In this document: positions 3,350 through 37,198 of the stretch, piece after piece | Layout: every line of letters starts with the position of its first letter | How positions within the stretch are numbered: the first letter of the stretch is position 1 | NCBI GenBank assembly: GCA_028040005.1 | Contig: JAOFKK010000001.1 | Location: 1 to 40,456 of the forward strand | Length of the DNA stretch: 40,456 nt | Source: Rickettsiales bacterium | GTDB taxonomy: Bacteria; Pseudomonadota; Alphaproteobacteria; Rickettsiales; UBA1997 | Direction: 5' to 3' | The notes under the pieces: generated by a model | Database searches by the model: none | What the model was told of the DNA's origin: nothing | What the model saw: the letters and a program-made list of their open reading frames with translations, nothing else | Position numbers and translations under genes: made by a program

Positions 3350-3396
3350 AGTATGCGTGGATTAAATCTAACAGGAATCAATTTTCAATTACAAAA

Positions 3397-4230: not shown

Positions 4231-4261
4231 ATTGGGTGTCCGGAAAAAGGTAACCACATCA

Positions 4262-4723: not shown

Positions 4724-4770
4724 AAGACACAATTAAATTAACGATCCCTAGTCAAGACACCAAAGGTGGC

Positions 4771-4890
4771 TTGGTGGGGTACGGGATTCTTCAACATATA
4801 AAATGCCAATCAAGTTACCTCCTATCACAACATACACATAACTTTAAGTTGGCACTTTGGTGGGTACAGAATACTTCAACATATAAATTT
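4771..4890. repeat. Two copies of a ~35-bp dispersed intergenic repeat (TTGGTGGGGTA..CTTCAACATATAAAtt)
   Basis: 4771-4804 and 4857-4890 align at roughly 80 percent identity by eye. A short hairpin precedes each copy. A third copy lies at 25524-25560. Confidence 0.55.
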
Positions 4891-5053
4891 ACCTAATCAC
4901 TATTTTATTTTACTTTAAAATGAAGTTCTATAAAATCTTTTTAATATTAAAGAAACCTTTGCATTGACTTTCTAATAGAATCAAACACTTCAATTACAAA
5001 AAGGTCTCTTAAAATTCATTTCCGGGCTTTAAAGTAACTTTTTTAATAAAATT

Positions 5054-7983: not shown

Positions 7984-8170
7984 GGCTAATATAATTAAAA
8001 TTAATAAACCATCAATTCTTATTTAAAAATAAGAAGGAGGAAGAAGATTAACATTCTTATTTTCAGATAGTAATTGATATATTTATTATATCAAATTTTT
8101 TGTTAAGATGCAATATTAATATTGATATATTGTTATAATAGTAATAAAATTTTTAAAAAATGGCATCATA

Positions 8171-9163: not shown

Positions 9164-9507
9164 ACAATAAATTCAATAATTTACTAGATAAATTTCCGCA
9201 TTTAGCATTATATTTACTTAAAACATTAATTCCTATTTTATCAGTGATTTTTGTTTTATCCTTTATTACCCTTTCAACTGAATTATTATGTCCAGACCAA
9301 GTTTTGGCAATTTTATTTGATATAGATGAAGATTATGAGCCAACTAAAAGATATCTTGCTTTTGAACAATTTATCAATTCTGGAAAGGAATTTATTTATT
9401 ATATCATTGATCAAATAGCAAATTTCTTTAAATATATGCTTCATGATTTAATGCCAAATCATCATTTTGGTGATTTTACCAGACCAACAAAATGTTTAGA
9501 AAAATAA
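9160..9507 (+). CDS. Small membrane protein, paralog A
   Basis: One TM segment; the start overlaps the ruvB stop (ATGA). It shares the block ...CP..(I/V)L..LFD......Y....F.QFI..G.EFI.Y.ID... with the next ORF. Confidence 0.5.
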
Positions 9508-9517
9508 TATTATAATA

Positions 9518-9919
9518 ATGTTTTCATCTATTGTCGATTTATTTCGAAGAGTTCCTATAACTGCCCTAGTGTTATTTTATGGTTTTATACCTACCATATT
9601 TTTATCTCTAACTGTTATTTTTATTATGCTTCATGTAGGGGCAATTTGTCCCACAACAATATTAGATTTATTATTTGATAATAATGAGTCAAATTACTAC
9701 CAGATAACCTTCCAATTTATTGATGCAGGTCAGGAATTTATTGGATATTTTATCGATATTATGTTCAACCTTATTAAAGCTACATTTGACGCCCTATTAG
9801 GTGATGAAAATTTTCTTGATTCCTTCACCTCAAATGGTGGGCAATGTCCCGATGTCGAATTTCCTATCCAGCCACTAGAAGAGATTGAAAATTTAAAAGA
9901 TAATTTAAATAATGACTAA
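9518..9919 (+). CDS. Small membrane protein, paralog B
   Basis: Tandem paralog of 9160..9507 (see the shared block there). Confidence 0.5.
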   Translation: MFSSIVDLFRRVPITALVLFYGFIPTIFLSLTVIFIMLHVGAICPTTILDLLFDNNESNYYQITFQFIDAGQEFIGYFIDIMFNLIKATFDALLGDENFLDSFTSNGGQCPDVEFPIQPLEEIENLKDNLNND

Positions 9920-10028
9920 ATTTTAAATTTAGCTATAGGAGTCTGTCGAAAAACTAAAATATGCATTTAGCAAAATTCTAATTTTTAGCTTTCTAACAGA
10001 TTCTTATAAAATAAAGATGATAAATTAA

Positions 10029-11033
10029 ATGATAGAAAAATTTCTAAGATTAACAATTGAAAAAAACGGGTCCGATTTACACCTATCCTCCAATAATGTC
10101 CCAACAGTTAGGGTTGATGGTGATTTGGTTAAAATTGGGTGGGAAAAATCCATTCCTGAATTTATCAATGAATCTGCCAAAAAAATATTATCAAAAGAAA
10201 AATTCCAAATATTTATCAGCGGCGATGAAGTTGATTATTCTTTTAGATATAATAAAGATTATCGTTTTAGAATTAACTGCTTCCACAATATTAATGGCCC
10301 CTCTATTAGTTTTCGTTGCTTAAAAAATAATATTCTATCTTTAGAAAAAATAATGGCTCCCGAAACTTTCAAAAAATTGTGCCACCTAGAAAAGGGCTTA
10401 ATTATCGTTTCTGGCGCTACAGGCTCAGGAAAGTCAACCACATTAGCCGCGATGATAGAATATATTAATCATAATTTTACAAAACATATTATATCAATAG
10501 AAGATCCAATTGAATATATCCATGATAGCGAAAAAGCTTTAATTGAACAAATTGAAATTGGCCAAAATACCCGGTCATTTTCCCACGCTCTTAAACATTC
10601 TATGCGTCAAGATCCTGATATTATTGTAATTGGCGAGGTCAGAGATCTTGAAACTATGAGATTAGCACTTACCGCCGCTGAAACTGGTCATTTAGTATTT
10701 GCAACCCTACATACTAACTCATCCTATCAAGCAATTAATAGAATTATTGATGTTTTTCCTGAAAATGACAAAAACACCGTTCGTTCCATGTTATCACTTT
10801 CTTTAAAAGGCGTGATATGTCAAAAATTAGTTAAAAAGAAAAAAGGTGGCAGATGTGCAGCTTTTGAAATTATGGTTGCAACTTCAGCGATACAAAATTT
10901 AATTAGAAGTAATAATATTCATAATCTTCACTCATCTATTGAAACAGGGTCAAAATTTGGAATGACAACTATGGATCAATATTTAAAAAAATTAACCAAT
11001 GAAAATATCATTGATCCAATACATTCATTTTAA
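10029..11033 (+). CDS. pilT: PilT-family type IV pilus retraction-type ATPase
   Basis: GSDLHL, Walker A GATGSGKSTTLAAM, SIEDPIEY, DPDIIVIGEVRD and GHLVFATLHT. Confidence 0.88.
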   Translation: MIEKFLRLTIEKNGSDLHLSSNNVPTVRVDGDLVKIGWEKSIPEFINESAKKILSKEKFQIFISGDEVDYSFRYNKDYRFRINCFHNINGPSISFRCLKNNILSLEKIMAPETFKKLCHLEKGLIIVSGATGSGKSTTLAAMIEYINHNFTKHIISIEDPIEYIHDSEKALIEQIEIGQNTRSFSHALKHSMRQDPDIIVIGEVRDLETMRLALTAAETGHLVFATLHTNSSYQAINRIIDVFPENDKNTVRSMLSLSLKGVICQKLVKKKKGGRCAAFEIMVATSAIQNLIRSNNIHNLHSSIETGSKFGMTTMDQYLKKLTNENIIDPIHSF

Positions 11034-11038
11034 CAAAT

Positions 11039-11971
11039 ATGAGTAATTTTGCAATTAATATTAAAAATCTTCAAAAAACCTACAATAAAGGTAAGAAATC
11101 TGAAAAAATCGCTCTAAAAAATATTAATTTAGAAGTTGAAAAGGGGTCATTCTTTGGTCTTTTGGGCCCTAATGGTGCTGGCAAATCTACCATTATCAAT
11201 ATTATGGCCGGTTTAGTTAAAAAAACTTCAGGCATGGTAGAAATTTGCGGTTTTAACATTGAAAAAGAACCAAATAAAGCCAAAAAAGAAATTGGCATAG
11301 TACCTCAAGAGCTTTTCATTGATCCATTTTTTAATGTTTTTGAAACATTAGAAATTTATGCTGGCTATTATGGTGTTCAAAAAAGAGATCGTAAAACTGA
11401 AGAAATTATAACAGCGCTTGGACTAAAAGATAAAATAACTGCCAAACCCAGATCGCTTTCCGGGGGTATGAAAAGACGACTCCTAGTAGCAAAATCATTA
11501 GTACATAATCCTCAAATTGTAGTTTTGGATGAGCCAACAGCAGGTGTTGATGTAGAATTGCGCGATAATCTTTGGTCCTATATTAAAAAACTTAATAAGG
11601 AACAAAAAACTACCATTATTTTAACCACTCATTATTTAGAAGAAGCAGAAGAATTATGCGACCAAATTGCTATCATCGATAATGGTTCAGTCATTAAATG
11701 CGATAAAAAATCCAACTTAATGAACTCCCTAGATGAAAGGGAAATAATTATTGATATTGCTGATCAAATTACCAAAATTCCAGATATTATATCTTCTAAA
11801 TTATCCGCTAATTTAATCAATAATAACAAGATAGCCATCAACTATAAATCTTGTGACATAGAATTTTATAAAATTCTTGATATTTTAAATCAATCAGGCC
11901 TTAAAATAACTGACTTTGAAACTAAAAGAGCCGATTTAGAAAAGATTTTTAAATATTTGATAAAAAAATAA
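11039..11971 (+). CDS. ABC transporter ATP-binding protein (ABC-2 type)
   Basis: Walker A GPNGAGKST, signature LSGGMKRR, Walker B VVLDEPTAGVD. Confidence 0.9.
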   Translation: MSNFAINIKNLQKTYNKGKKSEKIALKNINLEVEKGSFFGLLGPNGAGKSTIINIMAGLVKKTSGMVEICGFNIEKEPNKAKKEIGIVPQELFIDPFFNVFETLEIYAGYYGVQKRDRKTEEIITALGLKDKITAKPRSLSGGMKRRLLVAKSLVHNPQIVVLDEPTAGVDVELRDNLWSYIKKLNKEQKTTIILTTHYLEEAEELCDQIAIIDNGSVIKCDKKSNLMNSLDEREIIIDIADQITKIPDIISSKLSANLINNNKIAINYKSCDIEFYKILDILNQSGLKITDFETKRADLEKIFKYLIKK

Positions 11972-11972
11972 A

Positions 11973-12644
11973 TTGAAAATTAACATTTTTACCCTTTTTC
12001 CAGAAATTTTCTCCTCCTACTTATCTTGTGGCGTTATTTCTCGTGCTTTTGAAAAAGATATTTGTCAATTAAATCTTGTTAATATTCGTGATTTTGCCAA
12101 TAATAAGCGCCAAGATGTTGATGATTACCCTTTTGGTGGCGGTGCTGGCATGATTTTACGCCCTGATATTATTGGCAATGCCATTGATTCTCAAAAATTT
12201 AATCCCCATAAGAATAAATTTATTATTACATCACCAAAAGGTAAAAAATTTGATCAAAAAATGGCACAAAATTTAAGTCAAGAATCTGAAATTTCTATTC
12301 TTTGTGGCCGTTATGAGGGTATTGACCATCGCGTTATTACAGAATATAAAATGGAAGAAATTTCAATAGGAGATTACATATTATCAGGTGGTGAATTACC
12401 AGCACTTACCATGATTGACGCCATTTTGCGCAATATTTATGGGGTTTTAGGTAATCATGATTCATTAAATGAAGAAACATTTAATGATGATTTTTTAGAA
12501 TATCCACAATATACTAGACCAAGGGAATGGAAAAATCACAAAGTTCCAGATATTTTATTATCTGGCAATCATGCCAAAATTAAAGAATGGCAAGAAAAGA
12601 ATAATACCAAAATTAATATAAATAATGACAGTAAAAATAATTGA
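11973..12644 (+). CDS. trmD: tRNA (guanine37-N1)-methyltransferase TrmD (TTG start)
   Basis: FTLFPEIF, GGGAGM, CGRYEGIDHRV, SIGDYILSGGELPA. Confidence 0.93.
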   Translation: MKINIFTLFPEIFSSYLSCGVISRAFEKDICQLNLVNIRDFANNKRQDVDDYPFGGGAGMILRPDIIGNAIDSQKFNPHKNKFIITSPKGKKFDQKMAQNLSQESEISILCGRYEGIDHRVITEYKMEEISIGDYILSGGELPALTMIDAILRNIYGVLGNHDSLNEETFNDDFLEYPQYTRPREWKNHKVPDILLSGNHAKIKEWQEKNNTKININNDSKNN

Positions 12645-25123: not shown

Positions 25124-25209
25124 GGAGGGATGGCCGAGCGGTCAATGGCAGCAGACTGTAAATCTGCCCGCATATGCGTACGTAGGTTCGAATCCTACTC
25201 CCTCCACCA
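25124..25209 (+). tRNA. tRNA-Tyr (anticodon GTA)
   Basis: Acceptor GGAGGGA/TCCCTCC, anticodon stem GCAGA/TCTGC with loop CTGTAAA, long variable arm CGCATATGCG, T-arm GTAGG TTCGAAT CCTAC, and an encoded CCA. Confidence 0.95.
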
Positions 25210-25258
25210 CTGATTTTGTGGTTGAAATATTTTGAAGGTTGTAAGATAATAATGCTGT
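25192..25258 (+). repeat. 67-bp direct repeat, copy 1 (last 18 nt of tRNA-Tyr plus 49 bp downstream)
   Basis: Identical to 25355-25421 except for one C/T difference. Confidence 0.9.
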
Positions 25259-25354
25259 AAAAATTCGAACCTACGTTTAAATTAAATATGGTTCGACAGG
25301 AGCATTTGAGCGTAGCGAAAAGCGCAACTGCTAGTTAAGCGAAGCGCCAACGTC

Positions 25355-25421
25355 ATCCTACTCCCTCTACCACTGATTTTGTGGTTGAAATATTTTGAAG
25401 GTTGTAAGATAATAATGCTGT
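25355..25421 (+). repeat. 67-bp direct repeat, copy 2 (orphan tRNA-Tyr 3' fragment plus flank)
   Basis: See copy 1. It is preceded by 96 bp of G+C-richer sequence that contains an inverted tRNA-Tyr T-arm fragment, ATTCGAACCTACGT, at about 25262-25275. Confidence 0.9.
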
Positions 25422-25523
25422 TTAAAACTCCCCTTGAAATAAAATATTATTATAAATAATATTTTATGGCATGGGGGTAAAAAGCAATTAAGGCGCTTTT
25501 TTGTCTCAAAGCAATTTATTGCT

Positions 25524-25616: not shown

Positions 25617-25845
25617 ATTATGACCAAATTAATAAGGACAGGTGGCTGAGTGTATGAGCGCAGCAGTTTGAAAACTGATTTTTTTTCTCGGCAGTTTTCA
25701 AGCTATTACTTAAATCGAGAAATTATGACCAAATTAATAAGGACAGGTGGCTGAGTGTATGAGCGCAGCAGTTTGAAAACTGATTTTTTTTCTCGGCAGT
25801 TTTCAAGCTATTACTTAAATCGAGAAATTATGACCAAATTAATAA
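25617..25845 (+). repeat. 105-bp tandem repeat (two full units plus the start of a third that runs into the genuine tRNA-Ser)
   Basis: Units start at 25617, 25722 and 25827. Each full unit holds the upstream flank ATTATGACCAAATTAATAA, a degenerate tRNA-Ser 5' half, a T8 run and an inverted copy of the anticodon region. Confidence 0.9.
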
Positions 25846-25935
25846 GGACAGGTGGCTGAGTGGTCGAAAGCAGCAGTCTTGAAAACTGCCGAGCGTGCAA
25901 GCGTTCCGTGGGTTCGAATCCCACCTTGTCCGCCA
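25846..25935 (+). tRNA. tRNA-Ser (anticodon TGA)
   Basis: Acceptor GGACAGG/CTTGTCC (one G-T pair), anticodon stem GCAGT/ACTGC with loop CTTGAAA, long variable arm, T-arm GTGGG TTCGAAT CCCAC, and an encoded CCA. Confidence 0.95.
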
Positions 25936-25979
25936 GTTTCTATACTGCAAACTCAATCTCCGCTCAAATTTTCTAAGAC

Positions 25980-26303
25980 TTATCTAGGTCTACAAGCCCA
26001 GTAATGGCGGTACTTGCCGAGTTTCATTTTCAAAAAGCACTCTAAAAATCTTGTAACCGATTCTCTTTTTATCCATATCTGATAGTGGTTTTTTTGCAAA
26101 TCAATTTCTTGCAGCAAATCTTCGCCACCAGTGATCTTAATTGATTCTCCGGATGGAGGATTGCATTTTTTTGCAGATAAACTAAGAAGATGCCTCTTGT
26201 CGTTTATTTTATCTTCATCTCTTACGCTAACTAAAGAAACCTTTAACTTACCAGCATCATAGATTAATGTCTCGTTTACTGTTTCAAAATATTTCTTAAT
26301 CAT
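25980..26303 (-). CDS. Hypothetical 107-aa protein, last gene of the defence-like operon
   Basis: The start overlaps the res stop (ATGA at 26300-26303). I recognise no domain. It ends 45 bp from the tRNA-Ser 3' end. Confidence 0.5.
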   Translation of the reverse strand: MIKKYFETVNETLIYDAGKLKVSLVSVRDEDKINDKRHLLSLSAKKCNPPSGESIKITGGEDLLQEIDLQKNHYQIWIKRESVTRFLECFLKMKLGKYRHYWACRPR

Positions 26304-29269
26304 GACTTATTTCCCATAGCTTGATCAAAAAAATTCTTATAATTACTAGCTACCATATAGCGAGCATCTTCACCAAGAGCTTCAAAATGTTTGCGTCCAC
26401 AGTCAATTTTTCCTTTTTCTAAATCACGCAACATTCCTTCAAATGTATCTCCTTTTGTTTCTACAACAAAATAAAGGTGATCCTTTCCATCTTGTTCTAT
26501 CAAAACAGCCCAATCTGGATTATATGATCCAAGTGGCGTCTCAATTTTAAACCAGGCTGGCAATTTTGTATAAACTTTTACTTCTTCATTTTTCTCAAAA
26601 GATTCAGCTAAGCTGGACTCAATATTTGAATCATAAACCACATGATCATAGGTAGATTTTGCAGCCTCAATCATATTTTTATTGAGATATCCATTAAGCT
26701 CTTCGCTTTCAAACATCTCTTGGGCGTAGAAGTGGTCATTACCAATTTTGTGATATTTTATTCCATCAACAATGAATCTTCTCATTTCACGCTTAATTAA
26801 CTCCTTAACTCCATCGATAAATTTTTGAGGATTATTTTTAAAGGCTTCTAGTCGGCCACTTTCTAATAAAATATTAAGTATCGATTCTCGCTTTAAATTT
26901 GTTTCATTTTGCAGATAACTAAGAATATCCGGAATTTCATAATCACGAGCATCATATAAATGATTACTCTCCTGACTATCAATAACATTCACACCACCTT
27001 TACTAATTTCTGTTTTAGCTTTGGCATAATTAAATCTAGTTTTCCCAACTATTAGATTTTTTCCAATAGATTCAGCGCATTTTTTTATTAATTCCTGCGG
27101 ATCAAATTCAACATTATAAATGGTTTTGTATTTTACTTTATCCCACAATTCTTTAAACTCAGGGCTTTCAAAAACAGCCTTGTTTAGCTTTATAGTTTTT
27201 TTATCATCATTATTTTTAATATTAAGGCCGCCAGCAACTTTCTTTAAAGTAGCTATTATTTGCTCAGATTGCTCCACATAAGCATCTGGCAATTCAACAC
27301 TTCCTTCTTTAAGAGCCTTCTTAAGATTATCACTAACTTTACCCTTATTATCGATATATTCCTTTGTCAGCAAATGATTCCACACATTTTCTGAAGCCTG
27401 CGCTCCCAAAAACTTATCCTCTCCTTTTTCATCTTGATAAACAATATTAGCAAATAAATGCTCCTCAACAACTCCAAAGCGGATATTTTCTTCTTTTTCT
27501 ATTTCCTTTTGCAAGCCGTCAACAAATGATTCGTATGATTCATTGGCCATAACCGTTAATGTATTAACATCAAAACCATGAACTCTTTGTCCTTCTTGAT
27601 TAACGCAAATTCTTAAACCCCTTCCTATTTCTTGTCGTTTTTTGATAACTGATCCAGTTTCATTTAAGGTGCAAATCTGAAAAACATTTGGATTATCCCA
27701 ACCCTCTTTTAAAGCAGAGTGAGAAAATATAAATTTCAATTTTGAGTCAAAACTCAATAACTTCTCCTTATCTCTCATAATAAGGCCATATGTATCTTCA
27801 TCAGCCTTAGTATCACCTCTAGTATCTTTAGCGCCCCCCTTGTCGCTCGAGAAATATCCATTATGAACATTCTGGGCTAAAGTGGAAACATCCAACTCCT
27901 TAAGCAGATTGTTGTATTTTGGTTTTTTGATTAATTTAGAATATTCTTCCTCAAAAATAACCGCATATTTACCCTTCTCATTAGCGGCGCTGTAATCACG
28001 ATAATTAGAAACTCTATCAATAAAGAACAGACTCAAAACTTTAATGCCAAGAGGAGTTAATTTTAATTCTCTATTTAAATGCTCTTCAATTGTTTTGCGA
28101 ATTTGTAGCCTTTTATATTCATCTTCATTCACCTCGCCAATTGCTTGATTTAATCGAAGAATTTCCGGCTTACTGGTAAAATCAATATACTCGTTACCTT
28201 GCTCAGAGTAAATATCATTTATGATATAACCATCGTAAATTGTACGACCATTTGAAATAGTAAGTAAATCATCACCTTGCTTCACCCATTTTGTAATTTT
28301 CTCAACATTGGTTTTTCTTTGAATAGAAAGTTCAATTTTAGCTTTATGTCCTTTCTTATTATCAACTTCCAAAAGCTTAATATAGGCCTTATTATCCCCG
28401 TCTTTCACCTGAATTGAGGCAACTTCTATTTGCTTAACCAACTTTTGTTCATAAGCATCAATAGAATCTAGTTTATAAAGCATATCATGCTTTTTGGTAT
28501 GAGTTGCAGAATAGCGGAAGGTGCAAAGTGGATTTAGAGATTTAATTGCCTGCGAAGATTTATCTGTTGTATCCACGCTTTGCGGCTCATCAATAATAAC
28601 AATCGGATTAGTTGATTTAATAAAATCAATTGGCACTCCTTGCATTTTGTCATTCCAACGATGAATAATATTTGCAGTAGTTTCTTTAGAAGGGTCAGAA
28701 AAGCTTTTACGAAAAGCGTCAATATTAATAACCATAATTTGAATACAGTCATTAGCGGCAAAACTTCTAACTTGTTCTAATTTGGAAGAATTATAGAAAA
28801 AATAATCAACCGGAACATTATCATATAATTCTTTAAAATGATCTTTGGTCATTTCTAAAGATTTAAAAACGCCTTCTTTTATGGCAATGCTTGGCACTAC
28901 AATAATAAACTTACTAAAACCATAAAGTTTATTCATCTCAAAAACAGAGCGTAAATAAACATAGGTTTTTCCAGTTCCAGTTTCCATCTCAATGGTAAAA
29001 TTACGATCCTGCAATTCTTTAGATTGTTTTAAACCGTTTTTAAGCTGAATAGATCTGACATTATTTAAAATTTCCTCATCAATTAATTTTAAGCGATTGC
29101 CATAACCTTTATCAGTTTGATTAGACCATAATGCATCGAGAAGACCTCCATCTTTAATAGATGGCATAGAAAAAGCAGATTTACAAAGCTCTTGCCCTTC
29201 AAAAACTGAGCAAACTGCTTCCCAAGCTTTTTTCTGATGGATTTGATTTGGATCGAATTTAATTTTCAT
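26300..29269 (-). CDS. res: Type III restriction enzyme Res-like subunit (SF2 helicase plus C-terminal PD-(D/E)xK nuclease)
   Basis: Motif I EMETGTGKTYVY, motif II VIIDEPQS, ALKEGWDNPNVFQICTL, and a nuclease-like PDWAVLIEQDGKDHLYFVVETKG. Confidence 0.88.
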   Translation of the reverse strand: MKIKFDPNQIHQKKAWEAVCSVFEGQELCKSAFSMPSIKDGGLLDALWSNQTDKGYGNRLKLIDEEILNNVRSIQLKNGLKQSKELQDRNFTIEMETGTGKTYVYLRSVFEMNKLYGFSKFIIVVPSIAIKEGVFKSLEMTKDHFKELYDNVPVDYFFYNSSKLEQVRSFAANDCIQIMVINIDAFRKSFSDPSKETTANIIHRWNDKMQGVPIDFIKSTNPIVIIDEPQSVDTTDKSSQAIKSLNPLCTFRYSATHTKKHDMLYKLDSIDAYEQKLVKQIEVASIQVKDGDNKAYIKLLEVDNKKGHKAKIELSIQRKTNVEKITKWVKQGDDLLTISNGRTIYDGYIINDIYSEQGNEYIDFTSKPEILRLNQAIGEVNEDEYKRLQIRKTIEEHLNRELKLTPLGIKVLSLFFIDRVSNYRDYSAANEKGKYAVIFEEEYSKLIKKPKYNNLLKELDVSTLAQNVHNGYFSSDKGGAKDTRGDTKADEDTYGLIMRDKEKLLSFDSKLKFIFSHSALKEGWDNPNVFQICTLNETGSVIKKRQEIGRGLRICVNQEGQRVHGFDVNTLTVMANESYESFVDGLQKEIEKEENIRFGVVEEHLFANIVYQDEKGEDKFLGAQASENVWNHLLTKEYIDNKGKVSDNLKKALKEGSVELPDAYVEQSEQIIATLKKVAGGLNIKNNDDKKTIKLNKAVFESPEFKELWDKVKYKTIYNVEFDPQELIKKCAESIGKNLIVGKTRFNYAKAKTEISKGGVNVIDSQESNHLYDARDYEIPDILSYLQNETNLKRESILNILLESGRLEAFKNNPQKFIDGVKELIKREMRRFIVDGIKYHKIGNDHFYAQEMFESEELNGYLNKNMIEAAKSTYDHVVYDSNIESSLAESFEKNEEVKVYTKLPAWFKIETPLGSYNPDWAVLIEQDGKDHLYFVVETKGDTFEGMLRDLEKGKIDCGRKHFEALGEDARYMVASNYKNFFDQAMGNKS

Positions 29270-29300
29270 ACTCTTTAATGATTAGTTGTTGGCTATTATT

Positions 29301-29606
29301 TTATTCAAAAATAAATAATGTTTTAGCTGATTCATCTATATGTCTTTTTAGTGGTGGATAATTGATAAAATTATAGCCTTTTATATCGATTTTTAAGCCA
29401 AGGCTTGATTCATCAAAAAGAGTGTTAATTCTGTCAATATCTTTCTGCTCTAAATTGCCATATAACACCAAATCAAGATCTGAATATCCTTTATATTTTC
29501 CATTAGCTCTGGAACCAAAAATTCCTACTTTGGTGATTTTATCCTTATAACTATTTATTATATTTAAAATGATTTTTAATTCATTATCTGATAACCCATT
29601 ATTCAT
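29301..29606 (-). CDS. mntA: Minimal nucleotidyltransferase (MNT, HI0073-like; MntA-type antitoxin candidate)
   Basis: GIFGSRANGKYKGYSDLDLVL matches the GSx(n)DxD NTase motif. I place the start at the ATG at 29606 (MNNGLSD), one nt after the HEPN stop, rather than at 29651 as in the track. Confidence 0.8.
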   Translation of the reverse strand: MNNGLSDNELKIILNIINSYKDKITKVGIFGSRANGKYKGYSDLDLVLYGNLEQKDIDRINTLFDESSLGLKIDIKGYNFINYPPLKRHIDESAKTLFIFE

Positions 29607-29607
29607 T

Positions 29608-30024
29608 TTATTTATTTGTTTCATGAAGTAATTTTTCATATAAATAATCAAATAGCCCGAAGTGATTATTTTCTATATTTTCTATAACTTGCGAGAATAC
29701 CTCGTGACTATATTGGTGACTCATCTTATTGCGATCATCCAAAGTTTTCATCCATTTTTCTCTATCAATAATAATTTTTGCTTCAATGGCCTTAATAATA
29801 ACTTCCTTAGGAGTAATTTTTTCTAAAACAACACCCTCATTATCTAAATAATCTTTGAGAGTTTTCCAGGCAAGTTCCCAGCTATATTCAAATCTTTGAA
29901 TAATTCCCTCTTCTTCTAATGGGGTTATTTTTTTTTCACTTCTCAATTCCATTGCCTCTCTTAAAAGAAGAAAAGCTCTTTTGTAATTATCAAATCTATA
30001 TTCCCATCTTAATTTTTCGCTCAT
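29608..30024 (-). CDS. hepT: HEPN-domain protein (HI0074-like nucleotidyltransferase substrate-binding family; HepT-type toxin candidate)
   Basis: Family-typical W..R..N...A...L.EA and IQRFEYSWELAWKTLK, plus an Rx4H motif (RNKMSH). Confidence 0.8.
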   Translation of the reverse strand: MSEKLRWEYRFDNYKRAFLLLREAMELRSEKKITPLEEEGIIQRFEYSWELAWKTLKDYLDNEGVVLEKITPKEVIIKAIEAKIIIDREKWMKTLDDRNKMSHQYSHEVFSQVIENIENNHFGLFDYLYEKLLHETNK

Positions 30025-30056
30025 GTTATTTTATAAATTAATTTTAATTGATTAAA

Positions 30057-32108
30057 TCAAAGGCTTTTAATATCTTCAATTCCGCTGCGTTTCAGTGTGG
30101 TAATGGCGTTGGTTTTAATTACATCATCCCTAAAGCCATTATCCGAAAATACCACTCGCATAATCTCAGGTGAAAGTTCCTCTTTTAAGGCGCAAATACC
30201 ATTTACCACTTCCATATTAATTCCATCATCAAGACATATTATTAAAGCCCCAAGACCAATGATATAAATCTCCTTTCCAGCAATATTTCTAGTTTCAATA
30301 GGAAGGGTTAAATCAAGCCCATATTTTAAAAGAATTTCAAAAACTATATCTTCATTTGAACGATCATTTTTAATGTAATCAACTGACGCAATAAGATCTT
30401 CTTTTAAGCTATCAAAACCAGCTTCCCATCTTTTTATGTTTGAGCTATCAAGTTTAAAAACTTTAAAGCCCAAATCTCCTTGATAATCAGGATTTTCTTC
30501 TTTGATTTTCTTGGAGGCGCGACGGATTCGTTCTTTGGAAATATCACAGACATTCTCAACAAAAGATAAATTATTCTTTGAATAGTATTGTGCTTTGTCA
30601 GCAGGTTTTACTTCTTCAGGTAATTGTATAGAAATAGAATTTATACTCTGTTTGCTTTCTAAGCTTTTTAGAAAACACGCATGTGCTGTGCTACATGAGC
30701 CTGCAAAATAATCTAGAACCAGACCGCTTTCGTTGTCCTCGAAGCATAGCTCAAGCATTCTCTGGATGAATTTAGTTGGTTTTTTTCCGTTTGGGTACGG
30801 CACTCCTCCTTCTAAAGATACGCTACTCCAAGATAGGTCATCCCACAGAGTTCCAACTTTATCTTTTTTAATGATACCTTCGTTTGATCGCTCTGCTACA
30901 CCGCTCAAGTAGCTAACCAAACGTTTGGTTTTGCCTTCAAAGGAGACTCTAGTTCTCTTACCTTTGTTTCGCCCAGAGACAGGTTTATAATATATATTTA
31001 TCAAACCATCATGCTCTGGAGCGGCATTGGCTACTCTATCACGAATAGATGTCTGAGCATTTTCAGTGGTAAAAATACTTTCGAAGTATTTCTCGTATAC
31101 TAATTCTTGTTCAATATTTTCTTCTTTTGCTAATTGTGAAACTGTTTTTATTTCATAACCACTTACTGTATAAACCTCGATATCGTTTCCAGAGCCATCT
31201 TTGATGGTTTTCAAGTAGTTTTCACTTCCTTCTTTTGTAAGGATTTTGGTGTACGCGAACCCTTTGCCAGCATCCTTACGGTCATTAATATATTTAATGA
31301 GTAATTCAACCTTGTATATATCATTGAACTTTCTGAAGGATTGGCTCTTTGAGAAACAAAGGAGGTGCTCAATATTTTTCTTTAAGCGTCTGTCTTCGCC
31401 ACCACCACTCGCGCCTGAGCTATCTTTTGCTTTAACGCTAATTAGGTTGATAAAGTTTTCTTCGCCAAATATTTCATTGCAAATTTTGATTAGATTATCT
31501 AACTCATTGTCATCAATCGAAATAAAAATAACCCCATCATCTTGTAGCAAATTTCTCGCCAATTTCAACCTTGGATACATCATATTTAGCCAATTAGTGT
31601 GGTATCTTCCTGCTGAGTTAGAGTTTGTTCCAAGTTTTTTACCGCTCTCATCTGTTTGCCCTGTCATTTTTAAATAATGCTTTATTCCATCTTTAAAATC
31701 ATCCTCATAAACAAAGTCATTTCCTGTGTTGTAAGGAGGGTCAATATAAATCATTTTCACCTTGCGGTGATAAGATTTTTGTAAAAGCTTTAAAACTTCT
31801 AAATTATCGCCTTCAATAAAAAGATTTTGTGTATTGTCAAAATCAACCGATTCATCTTTTGCTGGTCGTAGCGTTCCTGTGCTTGGAGTTTGTGCCAATC
31901 TGCCTGCTTTTCTTTTGCCATGCCAAGTGAAATTATAATGATCTTCATCTTGGTTTACATAATTTCCTAAAAGCTCTTCTAATTGCTCAAATTTAATTTT
32001 GTCTTCACTAAAAACTTCAGGGAATAACTCTTTTAGCTTTTCGATATTTTGCTTAACAATATCTTCACTTTGCATATCTTTGGCTAACAATTTTTTCATT
32101 TCGCTCAT
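30057..32108 (-). CDS. mod: Type III-like Mod DNA methyltransferase (beta-class; N6-adenine or N4-cytosine)
   Basis: Motif IV IYIDPPYNTGNDF comes before motif I VLDYFAGSCSTAHA. Size and order are typical of type III Mod. Confidence 0.88.
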   Translation of the reverse strand: MSEMKKLLAKDMQSEDIVKQNIEKLKELFPEVFSEDKIKFEQLEELLGNYVNQDEDHYNFTWHGKRKAGRLAQTPSTGTLRPAKDESVDFDNTQNLFIEGDNLEVLKLLQKSYHRKVKMIYIDPPYNTGNDFVYEDDFKDGIKHYLKMTGQTDESGKKLGTNSNSAGRYHTNWLNMMYPRLKLARNLLQDDGVIFISIDDNELDNLIKICNEIFGEENFINLISVKAKDSSGASGGGEDRRLKKNIEHLLCFSKSQSFRKFNDIYKVELLIKYINDRKDAGKGFAYTKILTKEGSENYLKTIKDGSGNDIEVYTVSGYEIKTVSQLAKEENIEQELVYEKYFESIFTTENAQTSIRDRVANAAPEHDGLINIYYKPVSGRNKGKRTRVSFEGKTKRLVSYLSGVAERSNEGIIKKDKVGTLWDDLSWSSVSLEGGVPYPNGKKPTKFIQRMLELCFEDNESGLVLDYFAGSCSTAHACFLKSLESKQSINSISIQLPEEVKPADKAQYYSKNNLSFVENVCDISKERIRRASKKIKEENPDYQGDLGFKVFKLDSSNIKRWEAGFDSLKEDLIASVDYIKNDRSNEDIVFEILLKYGLDLTLPIETRNIAGKEIYIIGLGALIICLDDGINMEVVNGICALKEELSPEIMRVVFSDNGFRDDVIKTNAITTLKRSGIEDIKSL

Positions 32109-32125
32109 TTTTTAATAATTAATAT

Positions 32126-32878
32126 TTATAAATTTTGTTCTAATTTTTTAATTAATTCAATCTTGTTTTTAATCTCAACATTTAACTCTACTTTACGGTT
32201 AAACTGAGTTTCTTTTTTTAAATCAGATTTTAGCACTGATATTTCATTTTCTAAATCAATAATTTGCTTTAAATATTTTTTGCGGATCAGTGTTTTCTCA
32301 ATAGTTGTTTTGCCATAATTGCCGCTGTAATTAGCAGCGCCAAGAGCAATTAATCTTTTGACTAAATCTTGATAAAATTCGTATAGATTTAAGGAAGAGA
32401 GTTTTTTCAAGTAGCAGTCATTTAAAAAATCCTTTTGAATTTCACTTAAATTTTGGCTATCTATCATTTCTGTTAAAAATTCTTCCGTAACCAATAACTT
32501 TGATTTATCAGCTTGGTTAATTCTTTTATTTGCCAGGCTTAGGGCAAATTTATCATTAAAATTAAACAATAATATCAACGGATAAGGAATTGCCTTATTT
32601 ATGAATGTAGCAATTTTTCTAATGCGATTATCACTTGCTAGATCAATTTTTAGAATTGCTATTTCTTGATATTCAACCAGTTCATCTTGATATTTGGCAA
32701 TGCCTGTATTGCTGGGCTTTAAAGTAAAAAGCCAAGTGATTTTTTTAATATCATCTTTGAGGGCTTTTTTGTCGGTCGCATCTAAATTGACATTTTCAAG
32801 GAATAGTTTTTTAAAAATGGGTTTATCTATTTTGCAAGAATCTGGCAGTTTTAAATTATTGAGAAAAATTTGGGTCAT
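32126..32878 (-). CDS. DUF4391-like protein of unknown function (250 aa)
   Basis: The sequence flavour (IFKKLF...L....K..L..DI.KI.W...L......I.........EI.I..I.L.......I......IPYP.IL) matches my memory of DUF4391 proteins found between helicase and methylase genes. This needs HMM confirmation. The start overlaps the SNF2 gene stop (ATGA). Confidence 0.6.
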   Translation of the reverse strand: MTQIFLNNLKLPDSCKIDKPIFKKLFLENVNLDATDKKALKDDIKKITWLFTLKPSNTGIAKYQDELVEYQEIAILKIDLASDNRIRKIATFINKAIPYPLILLFNFNDKFALSLANKRINQADKSKLLVTEEFLTEMIDSQNLSEIQKDFLNDCYLKKLSSLNLYEFYQDLVKRLIALGAANYSGNYGKTTIEKTLIRKKYLKQIIDLENEISVLKSDLKKETQFNRKVELNVEIKNKIELIKKLEQNL

Positions 32879-35800
32879 GATTTTTGCTCCTTAATAATTA
32901 AAAAGCTTATCACTTCAAAATCTTCAATTCCTTTGAAACTATCTTGAGATAGAATAGTTCCGCCTCGATTAAATAGGCTTTCAACACCTTTCTCATCATT
33001 TTTTCCTGATATATTTGATATTGCCGCTTCTAACATAAATTTGTAAGAGGACATATCTTTGCCGTTTTTTGTGGCTTCTTTTAGGTTTTTAATGGCATTT
33101 TCATCTAAGCTTTTTGCGCCTGAGCAAAGTTTTTTGAAAATATCGAGGATTTTTTTGCTTTGCAGATGGTTGAGAATGATATTGCCGTCACTGGCAACAT
33201 AAACCATGTAATATGGCGCCAAAGAGTAGTTTGAGTTTTCACTAACTTCTTTATGAATATCGCGCAAACAAAAAATTGTTCCTTCAGGTATTTCATCTAA
33301 ATTTCCTGAAATTGCTGCAAAAAAGCCAGAAGGAGATTTTTCTAAAACGGTTAAGTTATCTTTCATAAAGCTGGATAAATCCATGCGAAAATCGTTTAGT
33401 GTCATATCAGTAATTGAAACAGAGCCGTCAATATCCTCAATATCAATTACTGCATCTTGCAATTGTTTCATCTGGTTGCGGCGATATTCTAGATCATTCA
33501 TTTGGCGAGTTTCATCATAATCAATTACATTTTCCTCACCAGTTGCAGAAATATCTAATAAAACCATTCTTCCACTTACTCGGGCTTCTAGATTGATATA
33601 TTCATCTAGCTCCATATTAGGCCAAAAGTTAGCTAATTGAATTTTATCATTATGCGAGCCAAGTCGATCAACTCGACCAAATCTTTGAATTATTCGGACG
33701 GGATTCCAGTGAATATCGTAATTTATTAGCATATCGCAATCTTGAAGATTTTGTCCTTCAGAAATGCAATCTGTGGCAATTAATATATCAATGTGGTTTG
33801 TGGCTTCGGAGTCGATCTTATTTCTTTCTTTAGAGATTGGTGAGAAGTTGGTTAAAATATTATTTAAATCTTTACCAATATTTTTATCACTACATTGATT
33901 TAAGCCACTTCCAGTAACAAGGGCAGAATGAATTTTGTGCTTTTCTTTTACCCAAGGAGAGATGTTTTTGTAAAGATACTGTGCCGTGTCTGAAAAGGCG
34001 GTAAAAATAATAACTTTTTTATTATTTTCATTAAGAGGATTGGCAATTTTATCGCTTATTACCTCTTTTAGTTTTTGTAATTTAGCATCTTTAGTGGCAT
34101 CAATTTTTTTGGCTTCTTCTACTAAAATTCCAAGCAATTTGTAGTCTTCTTCTAAATCCTGTTTCCATCTGATGAGGTCAATATCTTGTATTAGAACTTT
34201 AATTTTGTTGCCGATTAGATATTCCTCAAATTCTGATGAATCGGTTTCTATGTCTTCAATGCTTAATTCTTCAAATTCTGAATTTTCTTGATCTTGGATT
34301 TGCGATAACAAATTACCAATCTTGTTTTGAAGCCTTTCTACTGTGATATGAAATGAATTTATTGAGCTTTCCATACGCTTCAACATATTCACCCTCATTA
34401 AGTGAATCATATTGCGCTCACGATCAACCTGACGAAAAACTGAAGCACCATCTTTAACTGCCTGATCATATTTGCGGCTGTATTCTTCTTGCTTATCCAT
34501 ACGCACATATTCAAGCGGGGCATAGGCGGCAAGATTGAGCTTCTTGATTGTCATATTGACATCTTTAAGCGGAGGGAACTTTCCATCAATGTCAATATCA
34601 GCCTTAATATTTTTTGGTTTTAGACGCTCGGGGAATTTGCCAATTTCAGCAACATCATAATATTTCTCTATGTGCTTTCTGGATCTGGCGATTGTTAGAA
34701 TATCAAGCAACTTAAAATAACCGAAGTTCATTTTTTCAAGCAAGCTTGCTGTTTTTCTTTGTCCATCTGGCAATTTTAGCCATTCATTGAATTTGGTCTG
34801 AGCTATTTTTAATGTGTTTTCAATGCTGGCTATTCCATGATCTGAAAGTGCATTGTCTTTTCCTTCGGTTATGAAGGCGACTTGGTTTTTTAAATCATTC
34901 ATTCGACTATTTACTGGCGTTGCCGACAGCATTAAAACTTTGGTCTTTACGCCAGCCCTAATGACTTGATCCATTAGTTTTTGATATCTGGAAATTGCTC
35001 CTGTTTTGGTTCCGGCATTTTTAAAATTATGTGATTCGTCAATTACGATAAGATCATAATTTTCCCAATTTAGGGTTTCTAAATTTACCTCTCCTGATTT
35101 TCCTGATGTTCTGCTTAAATCTGTATGATTTAAAACATCATAATTGAAGCGATCAGCGGATAAAATATTACGCTTATCATTTATGGTAAATACTGTCCAA
35201 TTTTCACGCAGTTTTTTTGGACATAAAACAAGAATGCGATCATTGCGAAGTTCGTAATATTTTATAACCGCTAAAGCCTCAAAGGTTTTTCCCAAGCCAA
35301 CACTATCAGCTATTATGCAGCCATTATATCTTTCTAATTTATCAATTGCCCCTAATACTCCATCTTTTTGAAATTTATAGAGTTTATTCCAAACAAGAGT
35401 CTCCTTAAAGCCAGTTTTTGATCTAATAATATTGTCTTCATCAATATCTTCTATAAAGTCCTTAAATAGGTTATAAAGGGTTATGAAATAAATTAAATTT
35501 GCTGGTTTTTCTTCAGCTAAATATTCCAGTTGCTCAGTTATTTCTTTTTTGATGTTTAAGGCAGATTTTGGATTGTTCCAGATTGTATCAAACCACTGTA
35601 ACATTTGATTTGTTCCTTCTTTGTCAGATATGCCGATATTAATCTCAATAGCACTAGAATTTGTTTCTCCTAACCCAGAAGTCGTAAATCCAGAACTGCC
35701 TTGAATGCAAAAATCTTTACCATCTTGGTTTTTTACATGAAAAAGATTCTGATTAACAGCAGATCCAACTAGTGATTTAATTTGCACATCTTTAGCTAGC

Positions 35801-36069
35801 CAAGAAGAGAATTCTTTGGCTATTTGAGCCTGATCTAAATTATTTTTAAAGCGTATTTCCTCCAAGCTTCCAGCTAAAGTATGAATAAAATTATCATCCC
35901 ATTTTGATAGTAAAATTCTGGCTCCAGACAGAGTTGACAACTCTTTTTTAAGCGAAGCATAGCCATATATTGAAAAAAGATGCGACAAGACAGAAAGTTT
36001 TGCATTCTTACCAATTGAGTTTTTTAACTCTAAGCCGACTTTGCCATGATTTTTGTTATCAAGTAGCAT
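32875..36069 (-). CDS. SNF2-family helicase with an N-terminal PLD-like (HxK) domain (1064 aa)
   Basis: SNF2 motifs ADSVGLGKTFEA, LIVIDESHNFKN, MLSATPVNS, ATDCISEGQNLQDCDMLINYDIHWNPVRIIQRFGRVDRLGS. The N-terminus has HGK (res 8-10) and LFHVKNQDGKDFCIQGSSGFT (res 110-129), which resemble PLD HKD signatures. Confidence 0.88.
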   Translation of the reverse strand: MLLDNKNHGKVGLELKNSIGKNAKLSVLSHLFSIYGYASLKKELSTLSGARILLSKWDDNFIHTLAGSLEEIRFKNNLDQAQIAKEFSSWLAKDVQIKSLVGSAVNQNLFHVKNQDGKDFCIQGSSGFTTSGLGETNSSAIEINIGISDKEGTNQMLQWFDTIWNNPKSALNIKKEITEQLEYLAEEKPANLIYFITLYNLFKDFIEDIDEDNIIRSKTGFKETLVWNKLYKFQKDGVLGAIDKLERYNGCIIADSVGLGKTFEALAVIKYYELRNDRILVLCPKKLRENWTVFTINDKRNILSADRFNYDVLNHTDLSRTSGKSGEVNLETLNWENYDLIVIDESHNFKNAGTKTGAISRYQKLMDQVIRAGVKTKVLMLSATPVNSRMNDLKNQVAFITEGKDNALSDHGIASIENTLKIAQTKFNEWLKLPDGQRKTASLLEKMNFGYFKLLDILTIARSRKHIEKYYDVAEIGKFPERLKPKNIKADIDIDGKFPPLKDVNMTIKKLNLAAYAPLEYVRMDKQEEYSRKYDQAVKDGASVFRQVDRERNMIHLMRVNMLKRMESSINSFHITVERLQNKIGNLLSQIQDQENSEFEELSIEDIETDSSEFEEYLIGNKIKVLIQDIDLIRWKQDLEEDYKLLGILVEEAKKIDATKDAKLQKLKEVISDKIANPLNENNKKVIIFTAFSDTAQYLYKNISPWVKEKHKIHSALVTGSGLNQCSDKNIGKDLNNILTNFSPISKERNKIDSEATNHIDILIATDCISEGQNLQDCDMLINYDIHWNPVRIIQRFGRVDRLGSHNDKIQLANFWPNMELDEYINLEARVSGRMVLLDISATGEENVIDYDETRQMNDLEYRRNQMKQLQDAVIDIEDIDGSVSITDMTLNDFRMDLSSFMKDNLTVLEKSPSGFFAAISGNLDEIPEGTIFCLRDIHKEVSENSNYSLAPYYMVYVASDGNIILNHLQSKKILDIFKKLCSGAKSLDENAIKNLKEATKNGKDMSSYKFMLEAAISNISGKNDEKGVESLFNRGGTILSQDSFKGIEDFEVISFLIIKEQKS

Positions 36070-36075
36070 AATATT

Positions 36076-36258
36076 TTATTTTGTTTTTTCCTGTTTTTTA
36101 ATCCAATTATCTACTTCACTTTTCCTAAATTTCCAAGCATTGCCAACTTTAAACCCCGGAACTTTCTTTTCTGATGCAAAGCGATAGGCTGTTTTTTCTG
36201 CTATCTTAAGATAGTCAGCCAGCTCTTTCATTGTCATGATGTCGTTATTAGTAGTCAC
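36076..36258 (-). CDS. Excisionase/MerR-type HTH protein (60 aa, GTG start), first gene of the operon
   Basis: 57 of 60 residues are identical to the C-terminal 60 residues of the 2395..2583 product. The stop lies 6 nt before the SNF2 start. Confidence 0.8.
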   Translation of the reverse strand: MTTNNDIMTMKELADYLKIAEKTAYRFASEKKVPGFKVGNAWKFRKSEVDNWIKKQEKTK

Positions 36259-36509
36259 AATATTTGCCTTTAGCGATTAATTTGTAGAAAAATATTGAAA
36301 ATAGAATAGGAGAGAAATGGGTAGAAAACAAGAGAAAATGAAAAATTGCTGCAGAAGAGTTATTTTTGGAACATACTTAAAGCAAATTTAACAAATTTAT
36401 TAGTTGCATTTTCTTTCATTATTTTTCTTGTCTAATATTATATTAAATATAAAATTACAACCGCTTATATGGCTAAATTTAATTTATAATTAATTAACGG
36501 AATATTACT

Positions 36510-36833
36510 ATGAAAAAGACAATTATTATCATATTAGCAGCTTTAGTTTTAATTGCCGCTGGCTTCTTGTTTTATGGGTTCGCAGATAATAGCACCATGC
36601 CGCATTTGAATGATAATGAAGAAGAGGTAATTGATGGAAATAATCTTGATAATAAAGCTGAGAAAGATTCTCAAAATGATTCTGAGGTCAATAAAAATGA
36701 TACAGAAAATAGTGAATCCGAGGAAGTTGATTCTGATGATAGTCAGGAGGATGAAAATAGCAATGAAAGTGAAACTAATGATAAATCAGATTATGATACA
36801 TATGATGATAGTGAGGAACAAACTAAGGAGTAG
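36510..36833 (+). CDS. Secreted or membrane-anchored, extremely acidic D/E/N/S-rich protein (107 aa)
   Basis: N-terminal hydrophobic segment MKKTIIIILAALVLIAAGFLFYGF, then about 80 residues that are almost entirely D, E, N, S, T and K. Confidence 0.6.
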   Translation: MKKTIIIILAALVLIAAGFLFYGFADNSTMPHLNDNEEEVIDGNNLDNKAEKDSQNDSEVNKNDTENSESEEVDSDDSQEDENSNESETNDKSDYDTYDDSEEQTKE

Positions 36834-36958
36834 AATATTAAAAAATATTTAAATCTTTAATTGTAGCTAATCCAGAAAGAATTGATTTTGATAAAATTGA
36901 AGTCAGGTCAACTAGATTAGATTTTTAAGTGTAATATTAACTTTTTAATAAATTTATT

Positions 36959-37198
36959 ATGAAAAAAATTAGCTCTTTTTTACTTTTAATTTCTGCTTTT
37001 ATTATAATTAGCTCTGCATCTTCTATGGCCGCAGAAAATGACAATTTGAATGATTATGGTGATAACGAGACTCATTATGACGATAGCGATACCTATGATA
37101 ACTCTAATGATACTTATGAAGATAATACAGAGTTAGAAGATGTTGAATCAAGCAATTCTGAAGTTGAAGAGGAAAGCGAATATGATGAAGAAGAATAA
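36959..37198 (+). CDS. Secreted, extremely acidic D/E/N/S/T/Y-rich protein (79 aa)
   Basis: Signal peptide MKKISSFLLLISAFIIISSASSMA, then an acidic region with repeated D-x-Y-D-like motifs, ending EYDEEE. Confidence 0.6.
   Translation: MKKISSFLLLISAFIIISSASSMAAENDNLNDYGDNETHYDDSDTYDNSNDTYEDNTELEDVESSNSEVEEESEYDEEE

Follow-up and report, generated by a model that had tools for sequence, protein, structure and literature searches.

A conserved SNF2–DUF4391–Mod–Res module, a putative extension of type III restriction-modification, in a gene block beside tRNA-Ser of a Rickettsiales bacterium

We analysed a window of 40,456 nucleotides (nt) from a Rickettsiales bacterium (contig JAOFKK010000001.1; the window is the whole stretch of DNA under study), in which eight open reading frames (ORFs) lie between positions 25980 and 36258, all co-directional on the minus strand. 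In the order of their transcription they encode a helix-turn-helix (HTH) protein, a SNF2-family ATPase, a DUF4391 protein, a type III methyltransferase (Mod), a HEPN protein, MNT, a type III restriction protein (Res) and a short protein, orf107 (Table 1). Four of these genes, SNF2, DUF4391, Mod and Res, form a module that, judged from its sequences, is a real, widespread variant of type III restriction-modification (R-M). The genes are tightly packed. Specifically, the HTH and SNF2 genes are separated by 6 nt, DUF4391 and Mod by 17 nt, Mod and HEPN by 32 nt, HEPN and MNT by 1 nt, and MNT and Res by 31 nt, while SNF2 and DUF4391 (by 4 nt) and Res and orf107 overlap in an ATGA; the end of orf107 lies 44 nt from tRNA-Ser. 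The coordinates agree throughout with the eight tightly packed minus-strand ORFs and the spacings given in a preliminary description of this DNA, whose family labels were borne out by Pfam, PADLOC and NCBIfam profile scans and by comparison with the Mod and Res of EcoP15I.

To define the conserved core, we seeded a homologue search on DUF4391, which returned 414 homologues, and aligned the diverse matches; 80 loci were then taken from contigs of one genome per species, and their ORFs were searched with the eight proteins of the window. The order SNF2–DUF4391–Mod–Res is kept in all 80 loci, contig ends aside, with the sole exception of one locus without a SNF2 match. These loci span at least seven phyla, including Alpha- and Gammaproteobacteria, Clostridia and other Bacillota, Bacteroidota, Parcubacteria, Chloroflexota and Planctomycetota, and plasmids of E. 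coli, Acinetobacter and the archaeon Methanomethylovorans carry annotated copies of all four; one copy is that of the E. coli plasmid pLAO18 (NZ_OP242248.1, bases 3154–12215). Where the contig was long enough, no DUF4391 locus without Mod/Res was seen among the 80, nor did they show any further conserved flanking gene, the commonest one occurring in 7 of them. The module was also reached from the Res side, in four Firmicutes plasmid loci (B. cereus, Listeria, Lactococcus and E. faecium): of the plasmid Res homologues at 35–45% identity, all four sampled sit within the module. The same Res clade is present at about 35% identity on plasmids of Enterococcus, Staphylococcus and Lactococcus. EcoP1-like Res genes reach only 28–32% identity and, at the level of annotation, are named as ordinary type III endonucleases by the Prokaryotic Genome Annotation Pipeline. 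Additionally, the module is found in 10 of 5,426 complete E. coli genomes, mostly plasmid-borne, and the DUF4391 family comprises 2,215 clusters at 50% identity (E ≤ 1e-3) from bacteria and archaea, one copy of the gene, 97% identical, lying in an uncultured Rickettsiales genome. These comparisons show that the four core genes stay together, in the same order, in bacteria and archaea alike. The SNF2/DUF4391 and Mod/Res pairs are therefore not coincidental neighbours, their order recurring both in the 80-locus survey and on bacterial and archaeal plasmids. The proposal of a seven-gene (or eight-gene) system does not hold, the conserved core being four genes, joined by the HTH gene in 30 of 72 loci.

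The core genes fall into two pairs. In 53 complete loci, the pairwise identities correlate at 0.88 (rho) between SNF2 and DUF4391 and at 0.86 between Mod and Res, compared with 0.52–0.60 across the pairs, and the 4-nt overlap of the SNF2 stop with the DUF4391 start is present in 37 of 76 loci. The sequences show that SNF2 and DUF4391 co-evolve and are translationally coupled, and the correlation pattern together with this overlap points to two tight co-evolving pairs that are kept together yet somewhat recombined. SNF2 is the most conserved of the four core proteins, with 55–73% identity to the window protein across phyla. In another Rickettsiales genome (L002, 6805–15516), SNF2 is broken up over four ORFs and Res over three, a sign either that the module is decaying or that a long-read assembly introduced frameshifts.

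Sequence comparison shows that Mod and Res are genuinely homologous to their EcoP15I counterparts and that their catalytic motifs are intact. Mod matches only the MTase_III and MTase_II models in PADLOC (MTase_III, 1e-182) and EcoP15I Mod at 5e-51. Res matches REase_III over its full length (E = 0) and EcoP15I Res at 8e-69, and contains RE_endonuc (5e-37) and ResIII; its score lies below the NCBIfam equivalog cutoff (385 versus 564). The DPPY and FxGS motifs of Mod, as well as the TGTGKT (Walker A), DEPQ and PD...ExK motifs of Res, are invariant in all 54 sequences. Accordingly, the proteins carry the sequence features of type III R-M, namely a Mod with DPPY and the S-adenosylmethionine motif and a Res with a superfamily 2 (SF2) ATPase and a PD-(D/E)xK nuclease. 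Type III enzymes are the textbook two-subunit system, and to our knowledge canonical type III enzymes have no SNF2 or DUF4391 partners. The module shares with EcoP15I, EcoP1I and StyLTI a homologous Mod that stands before Res, with DPPY, Walker A/B and PD-ExK intact. However, it is not a two-gene system: the SNF2 ATPase and DUF4391 accompany this Mod/Res clade, and precede it, in every locus examined, and cargo genes often lie between the core genes. On the Lactococcus plasmid pLLUL021B (L086, 6639–7969), two short ORFs annotated as DNA methyltransferases are placed between Mod and Res and may represent an additional methylase or a broken one. Type III systems that have a second M are mentioned in a lactococcal study (PMC12418389); a link between the lactococcal type III system Lcr007I and this clade could not be made.

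In the SNF2 protein, an N-terminal phospholipase D (PLD)-fold domain is followed by a Swi2/Snf2 helicase core and by a C-terminal region that is also conserved; in PADLOC, the protein matches C3a139 'HKD+Snf2' (3e-128). The GLGKT, DESH and QRFGRxDR (motif VI) motifs are invariant in 54 of 54 sequences, and by this measure the ATPase is shown to be intact. Since the ATPase motifs are invariant in both motors, 'two-motor, methylation-based' is a fair description of the system. The PLD-like domain of the window protein scores below the Pfam threshold (E 0.005), and PLDc_2 is weakly matched by 31 of 45 family members, with a best E of 2e-6. In the structure model, the N-terminal 205 residues have predicted local distance difference test (pLDDT) values of 83–93. 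The best Foldseek match of the SNF2 protein is SauUSI (7CLG, E 2.4e-7), and other PLD-fold matches are the FAM83 pseudo-PLD (4urj, TMt 0.59) and phosphatidylserine synthase. The family-wide weak matches and the predicted structure together confirm the PLD fold of this domain.

The catalytic residues of the PLD domain are degenerate. Among 73 homologues, His111 is retained in 52, Lys113 in 5 and the Asn position in 3; the window protein reads H-V-K...G-S-S-G-F-T, with Gly at the Asn position. Of the 'PLD nuclease-type' domain noted in the preliminary description, the PLD fold stands, but its reading as a nuclease is not supported, and an active PLD nuclease was rejected as a feature of the family. 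The SNF2 protein is probably not the nuclease. Because the PLD H-x-K and Asn are degenerate and the PD...ExK of Res is invariant, Res would be the nuclease of the family, with the PLD-fold domain most likely structural. SauUSI, an ATP-dependent type IV enzyme, has the same arrangement of an N-terminal PLD domain followed by an SF2 motor. SauUSI works as a single protein, with an active PLD site and a domain of its own that recognises modified cytosine as the target, whereas the SNF2 protein has PLD catalytic residues that are not conserved and is linked to a Mod/Res pair.

The AlphaFold2 model of DUF4391 is confident (pLDDT 92.5, pTM 0.86) and contains an alpha/beta domain of six strands, followed by three long C-terminal helices. 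No sequence relative was found in the PDB, and Foldseek gave no structural relative in the PDB (best E 0.036, TM 0.18) and none usable in BFVD (best E 2e-3, TM 0.24); DUF4391 was thus rejected as a known fold or nuclease. A protein of 1419 amino acids (aa) from the representative library (P0380) carries DUF4391 as a C-terminal fusion to an RNase_H_2-type nuclease with a superfamily 1 helicase (AAA_11/AAA_12), a helicase partner unrelated to SNF2. This fusion, together with the coupling to SNF2, suggests that DUF4391 may serve as a helicase partner or adaptor. On a Listeria plasmid (L085, 5565–6122), the position of DUF4391 is taken by a divergent 185-aa protein that matches the N-terminal domain only (hhalign 83.6%) and may lack the C-terminal helices.

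Table 1 Features of the gene block and its borders in the window.
Feature	Position	Strand	Supporting match or basis
HTH protein, 60 aa, excisionase/MAD1-like	36076..36258	-	Pfam HTH_17 5e-14
SNF2-family ATPase, 1064 aa, core gene 1	32875..36069	-	SNF2-rel_dom, Helicase_C, ResIII
PLD-fold N-terminal domain of the SNF2 protein, aa 1-205	35455..36069	-	structure model, Foldseek
DUF4391 protein, 250 aa, core gene 2	32126..32878	-	PF14335 5e-65
Type III Mod, beta-class N6-adenine DNA methyltransferase, 683 aa, core gene 3	30057..32108	-	N6_N4_Mtase 1e-28
HEPN protein, HI0074 / NTase_sub_bind family, 138 aa, toxin half, cargo	29608..30024	-	PF08780 2e-35
MNT, 101 aa, antitoxin half, cargo	29301..29606	-	Polbeta + NTP_transf_2
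Type III Res, 989 aa, SF2 helicase-like ATPase and C-terminal PD-(D/E)xK endonuclease, core gene 4	26300..29269	-	
orf107, no family, Shedu-like gene remnant	25980..26303	-	
tRNA-Ser(tga), edge of the putative inserted block	25846..25935	+	ARAGORN
AT-rich intergenic stretch upstream of the HTH gene, presumed promoter/operator	36259..36509	none	

Besides the core, the block contains the HTH gene, the HEPN/MNT pair and orf107. The HTH protein matches NCBIfam antiphage_MADS1 (NF047737) at 81.6 bits against a cutoff of 80, as well as TIGR01764 and PADLOC mad1 (6e-7), and the 30 of 72 loci mentioned above (about 40%) have a homologue no more than 700 nt upstream of SNF2. It is probably a transcriptional regulator that tunes the expression of the module, accessory and not universal. 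A scan for promoters and terminators gave matches no commoner than in shuffled sequence, and the region upstream of the HTH gene contained no convincing operator repeats.

The HEPN protein scores 92.7 bits with TIGR01987 (cutoff 55.8) and contains the RxxxxH motif. MNT, which we counted from the ATG at 29606 (the mechanical ORF call begins at the TTG at 29651), contains the GS-x10-DxD motif and reaches only 20.5 bits with NCBIfam MntA (cutoff 60). The features of a type VII pair are thus present, with the HEPN Rx4-6H and the MNT GSx10DxD in adjacent genes 1 nt apart, the MntA equivalog score remaining below its cutoff. Homologues of HEPN, MNT and orf107 were absent from all 80 related loci, and HEPN/MNT was rejected as a core part for want of a counterpart in any other locus. 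An embedded toxin-antitoxin and an HTH regulator are present as first proposed, but HEPN/MNT is no part of the system; from its sequence, it is an independent type VII-like toxin-antitoxin cargo in the Mod–Res junction.

Such cargo is common. Extra co-directional genes occupy the DUF4391–Mod or the Mod–Res junction in about 30 of the 80 loci, the former in about 17. They encode GmrSD (8 loci), RhuM (4) and Fic (3), and further an AbiH/DUF4917 protein, the YhcG nuclease, DUF6119, a HerA-like ATPase and an Abi_C protein; the paired cargo comprises an OLD-type ATPase with a UvrD helicase and AAA_21 with DUF4276. Because the cargo of these about 30 loci is all defence-type, the module appears to sit in a defence context. 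The module itself is presumed to act in defence. The GmrSD type IV restriction gene, encoding 563–565 aa, lies in the Mod–Res junction of L017, L018, L029, L037, L042, L047, L048 and L051, which come from different genera; this placement suggests a recurrent or inherited pairing of modification-dependent with modification-blocked restriction in one operon. In L071 (6324–10006), a Gabija-like pair (OLD-type ATPase/TOPRIM and UvrD helicase) is located between DUF4391 and Mod. HEPN genes inside R-M operons (PMC3710099) and insertions in the hma operon (PMC11232893) were noted earlier. There, likewise, unrelated defence genes stand between core genes of a methylation-based operon, but the hotspots here are the DUF4391–Mod and Mod–Res junctions of this particular module.

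For orf107, only two relatives besides itself were found among 5.8 billion proteins. One homologue (P0242) directly precedes a gene for an SduA_C (Shedu) nuclease. At the DNA level, homology (80%) begins at the start codon and breaks off at about position 26025, and on the other contig (L089, 2679–3780) the frame matching orf107 continues into an SduA_C nuclease ORF. From this neighbourhood, the stop of homology and the continuing frame, orf107 is the 5' piece of a Shedu-like gene, cut short near the tRNA and lacking the SduA_C nuclease; as such a remnant, it was rejected as an eighth component. The L089 contig has a frameshift of its own, at a poly-A run between the orf107-like part and the nuclease part.

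The best explanation of the block is a horizontally acquired defence island beside tRNA-Ser. Its G+C content is about 0.33, compared with about 0.26 on the tRNA side, and in a Thiomicrospira locus (L011) a tRNA-Ser(tga) likewise follows directly after Res. Around the tRNA genes, two sets of repeats are found. The last 18 nt of tRNA-Tyr with 54 nt downstream (25192–25263) are duplicated 163 nt further on (25355–25426), giving 72 nt at 96% identity. Upstream of tRNA-Ser, three tandem copies at a spacing of 105 nt (25617–25884) carry the 5' part of tRNA-Ser, the third being the start of the real gene. The repeats at both tRNAs look like scars of repeated integration or excision. The block was first placed right after tRNA-Ser and these tRNA-fragment repeats; its adjacency to the tRNA stands, whereas the repeats lie upstream of tRNA-Ser and beside tRNA-Tyr and not between the tRNA and the operon. 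Within 3 mismatches, the 3' end of tRNA-Ser is not repeated elsewhere in the window, where a repeat would have marked the far boundary of an integrated element, and the flanks contain no integrase and encode housekeeping-type proteins. Just past the block (36510–37198, plus strand), two small, very acidic proteins rich in Asp, Glu, Asn and Ser (107 and 79 aa) have signal-peptide-like N-termini; the former matches SpoIIIAH below threshold only and the latter no family.

We favour, with a probability of about 0.6, the reading that SNF2–DUF4391–Mod–Res, optionally preceded by the HTH gene, is an extended type III R-M module in which SNF2 and DUF4391 form a second ATP-driven sub-complex. In the mechanism we propose, Mod would hemimethylate adenine at a short asymmetric site of host DNA and supply the sequence recognition, and Mod–Res, like EcoP15I, would use the PD-ExK nuclease of Res to cleave incoming DNA that is unmethylated. 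Type III systems are marked by hemimethylation of an asymmetric site and by cleavage that requires two unmethylated sites in inverse orientation. SNF2 and DUF4391 would provide the second ATP-driven sub-complex, on which this Mod/Res clade would depend. Specifically, SNF2 would be a double-stranded-DNA translocase or remodeller and not a nuclease, and DUF4391 an adaptor linking the motor to Mod/Res. Through DUF4391, the pair would either license methylation or potentiate and gate cleavage. The PLD-fold domain would probably be a dimerisation or DNA-clamp module, in a SauUSI-like arrangement as reported for MtsD of the MANTIS system (bioRxiv 10.64898/2026.09.23.753747), and by analogy the MtsB and PLD-SF2 parts of MANTIS offer a precedent for such accessory parts. 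Our confidence in a non-nucleolytic translocase and adaptor that license or potentiate Mod/Res, the role we infer for the pair, is low, although we favour it. We give slightly less than even odds to the further proposition that SNF2 and DUF4391 are obligatory in a distinct, widespread class of methylation-based immunity that derives from type III R-M, in which a second motor, acting via an adaptor of new fold, controls when or where Mod methylates or Res cuts.

Several points weigh against the extended-module reading. The window SNF2 protein reads H-x-K, and this member could therefore retain a residual PLD activity. Beyond the N-terminal domain, the model of the full-length SNF2 protein is poor, with a helicase part of low confidence, and no claim is drawn from its helicase or C-terminal parts. 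The correlation across the pairs is only 0.52–0.60 and cargo often separates DUF4391 from Mod, so that the histories of the two pairs are partly separate. The 80 loci come from a search seeded on DUF4391, and SNF2 relatives without DUF4391 lie outside this sample. Finally, canonical Mod and Res are self-sufficient, and the SNF2/DUF4391 pair might therefore be dispensable.

The same self-sufficiency, which is established knowledge, would also suit two independent neighbours, that is, a complete type III R-M system and a separate SNF2–DUF4391 defence system that tend to co-localise in defence islands without depending on each other. The within-pair correlations (0.86–0.88) that exceed the cross-pair values, the cargo between DUF4391 and Mod in about 17 loci, and the assignment of Mod and Res to plain type III by PADLOC all agree with such a history. 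However, co-occurrence, order and orientation are kept in essentially all 80 loci and on the plasmids, the four Res homologues sampled from the Res side all sit in the module, and no DUF4391 locus on a sufficiently long contig was free of Mod/Res; unlinked systems would not be expected to keep one order from bacteria to archaea. We therefore consider two independent systems unlikely.

The closest working analogy for the module is MANTIS. Both are methylation-based and have two ATPases, a PLD-SF2 protein of SauUSI-like arrangement and, beside the methyltransferase, a small protein without known fold relatives (bioRxiv 10.64898/2026.09.23.753747; PMC12839542); in MANTIS, this small protein, MtsB, is the activator of the methylase, and the PLD-SF2 protein serves as effector (bioRxiv 10.64898/2026.09.23.753747). 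By this analogy, the PLD-SF2 protein could be a nuclease effector and DUF4391 an MtsB-like co-activator of the methyltransferase, with Res in place of the DUF499 AAA+ ATPase as loader or second ATPase. The PLD and SF2 arrangement with SauUSI as best structural match, a relative also reported for MtsD (bioRxiv 10.64898/2026.09.23.753747), the place of the small protein of no known fold between helicase and methylase in both systems, and the His111 and Lys113 of the window protein are consistent with it. Nevertheless, we hold this to be quite improbable. The fold and arrangement of the HKD/PLD-SF2 effector are present, but the window protein keeps H-x-K without the Asn, and the catalytic Lys (5/73) and Asn (3/73) are degenerate in the family whereas they are active in MtsD and the PD-ExK of Res is invariant. 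Moreover, Res is present and the window proteins include no DUF499 or BrxC-like ATPase; DUF4391 is not DUF3780, with no relation detected between them, and Mod is a type III beta-class enzyme. Membership in MANTIS or BREX-related type 2 (Gao_RL) was rejected, with neither the DUF499 AAA+ ATPase (MtsA) nor DUF3780 (MtsB) among the eight proteins.

Class 1 DISARM likewise unites a SNF2 helicase, an adenine methylase and a PLD-fold element in one operon. A DISARM-type system, with SNF2 as DrmD carrying a fused DrmC-like PLD, Mod as DrmMI and Res for the DrmA/DrmB helicase module, finds some agreement in the partial DrmD matches (PADLOC 7e-43; NCBIfam DISARM_DrmD 167 bits) and in a B. cereus plasmid with DrmA beside the module, but it is the least probable of the readings, as the DrmD score is far below the cutoff of 610 and confined to the C-terminal helicase lobe, Mod matches type III models and not DrmMI, Res is a clear EcoP15I homologue, and DrmA and DrmB (DUF1998) have no match among the window proteins, as already noted in the preliminary description, nor in the 80 loci. 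Membership in DISARM was rejected on these grounds. On the B. cereus plasmid (NZ_AP022916.1, 28632–42365; L084/L088), an annotated DrmA and a DUF1998 protein stand directly upstream of the module and co-directional with it, with no separate DrmC and no other methylase; this locus may be a DISARM/type III hybrid.

Two further systems were considered. MADS shares a MAD1-type HTH protein as the first gene and a basis in methylation. MAD6, MAD7 and MAD8 are mandatory in the model of its authors, and MAD1 is described as a widespread regulator that can be deleted with little effect (bioRxiv 10.1101/2023.03.30.534895); only MAD1 was matched here, and with neither the mandatory MAD6-8 nor MAD2-5 matched in PADLOC, membership was rejected. 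BREX was rejected as well, as the window proteins include no PglZ or BrxC and the sole BREX matches are partial ones of the BrxHI/HII helicase to the SNF2 protein. PADLOC assigns Mod and Res to plain type III, and the locus as a whole answers to none of DISARM, MADS, BREX and MANTIS. Together, the comparative evidence supports the earlier view of a methylation-based, two-motor system distinct from textbook type III R-M, DISARM and BREX.

No description of the four-gene module was found in the literature searched (SNF2/HKD/type III); supplements and subscription journals were outside the search, and an earlier mention is possible. The papers examined on YprA/ARMADA, BREX-related systems, Dnd, modularity networks and comparative genomics do not describe it, and searches for 'DUF4391' returned unrelated papers only and for 'PF14335' none. 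Within the same limits, the earlier statement that the helicase/DUF4391/Mod/Res arrangement has no assigned mechanism stands, as no paper giving one was found.

Present defence finders would call such loci plain 'RM type III' and pass over half of the conserved genes. A large clade that is never seen without a Swi2/Snf2 motor and DUF4391 suggests that restriction is controlled or potentiated at a level so far unrecognised. If true, control of Mod/Res by a separate Swi2/Snf2 remodeller would have no described parallel in any restriction system, and the reading of an obligate pair would give DUF4391 its first function. The module also accommodates other defence genes (GmrSD, RhuM, Fic, Gabija-like and HEPN/MNT), which makes it useful for finding new cargo, and its copies on E. 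coli plasmids make the question open to direct test.

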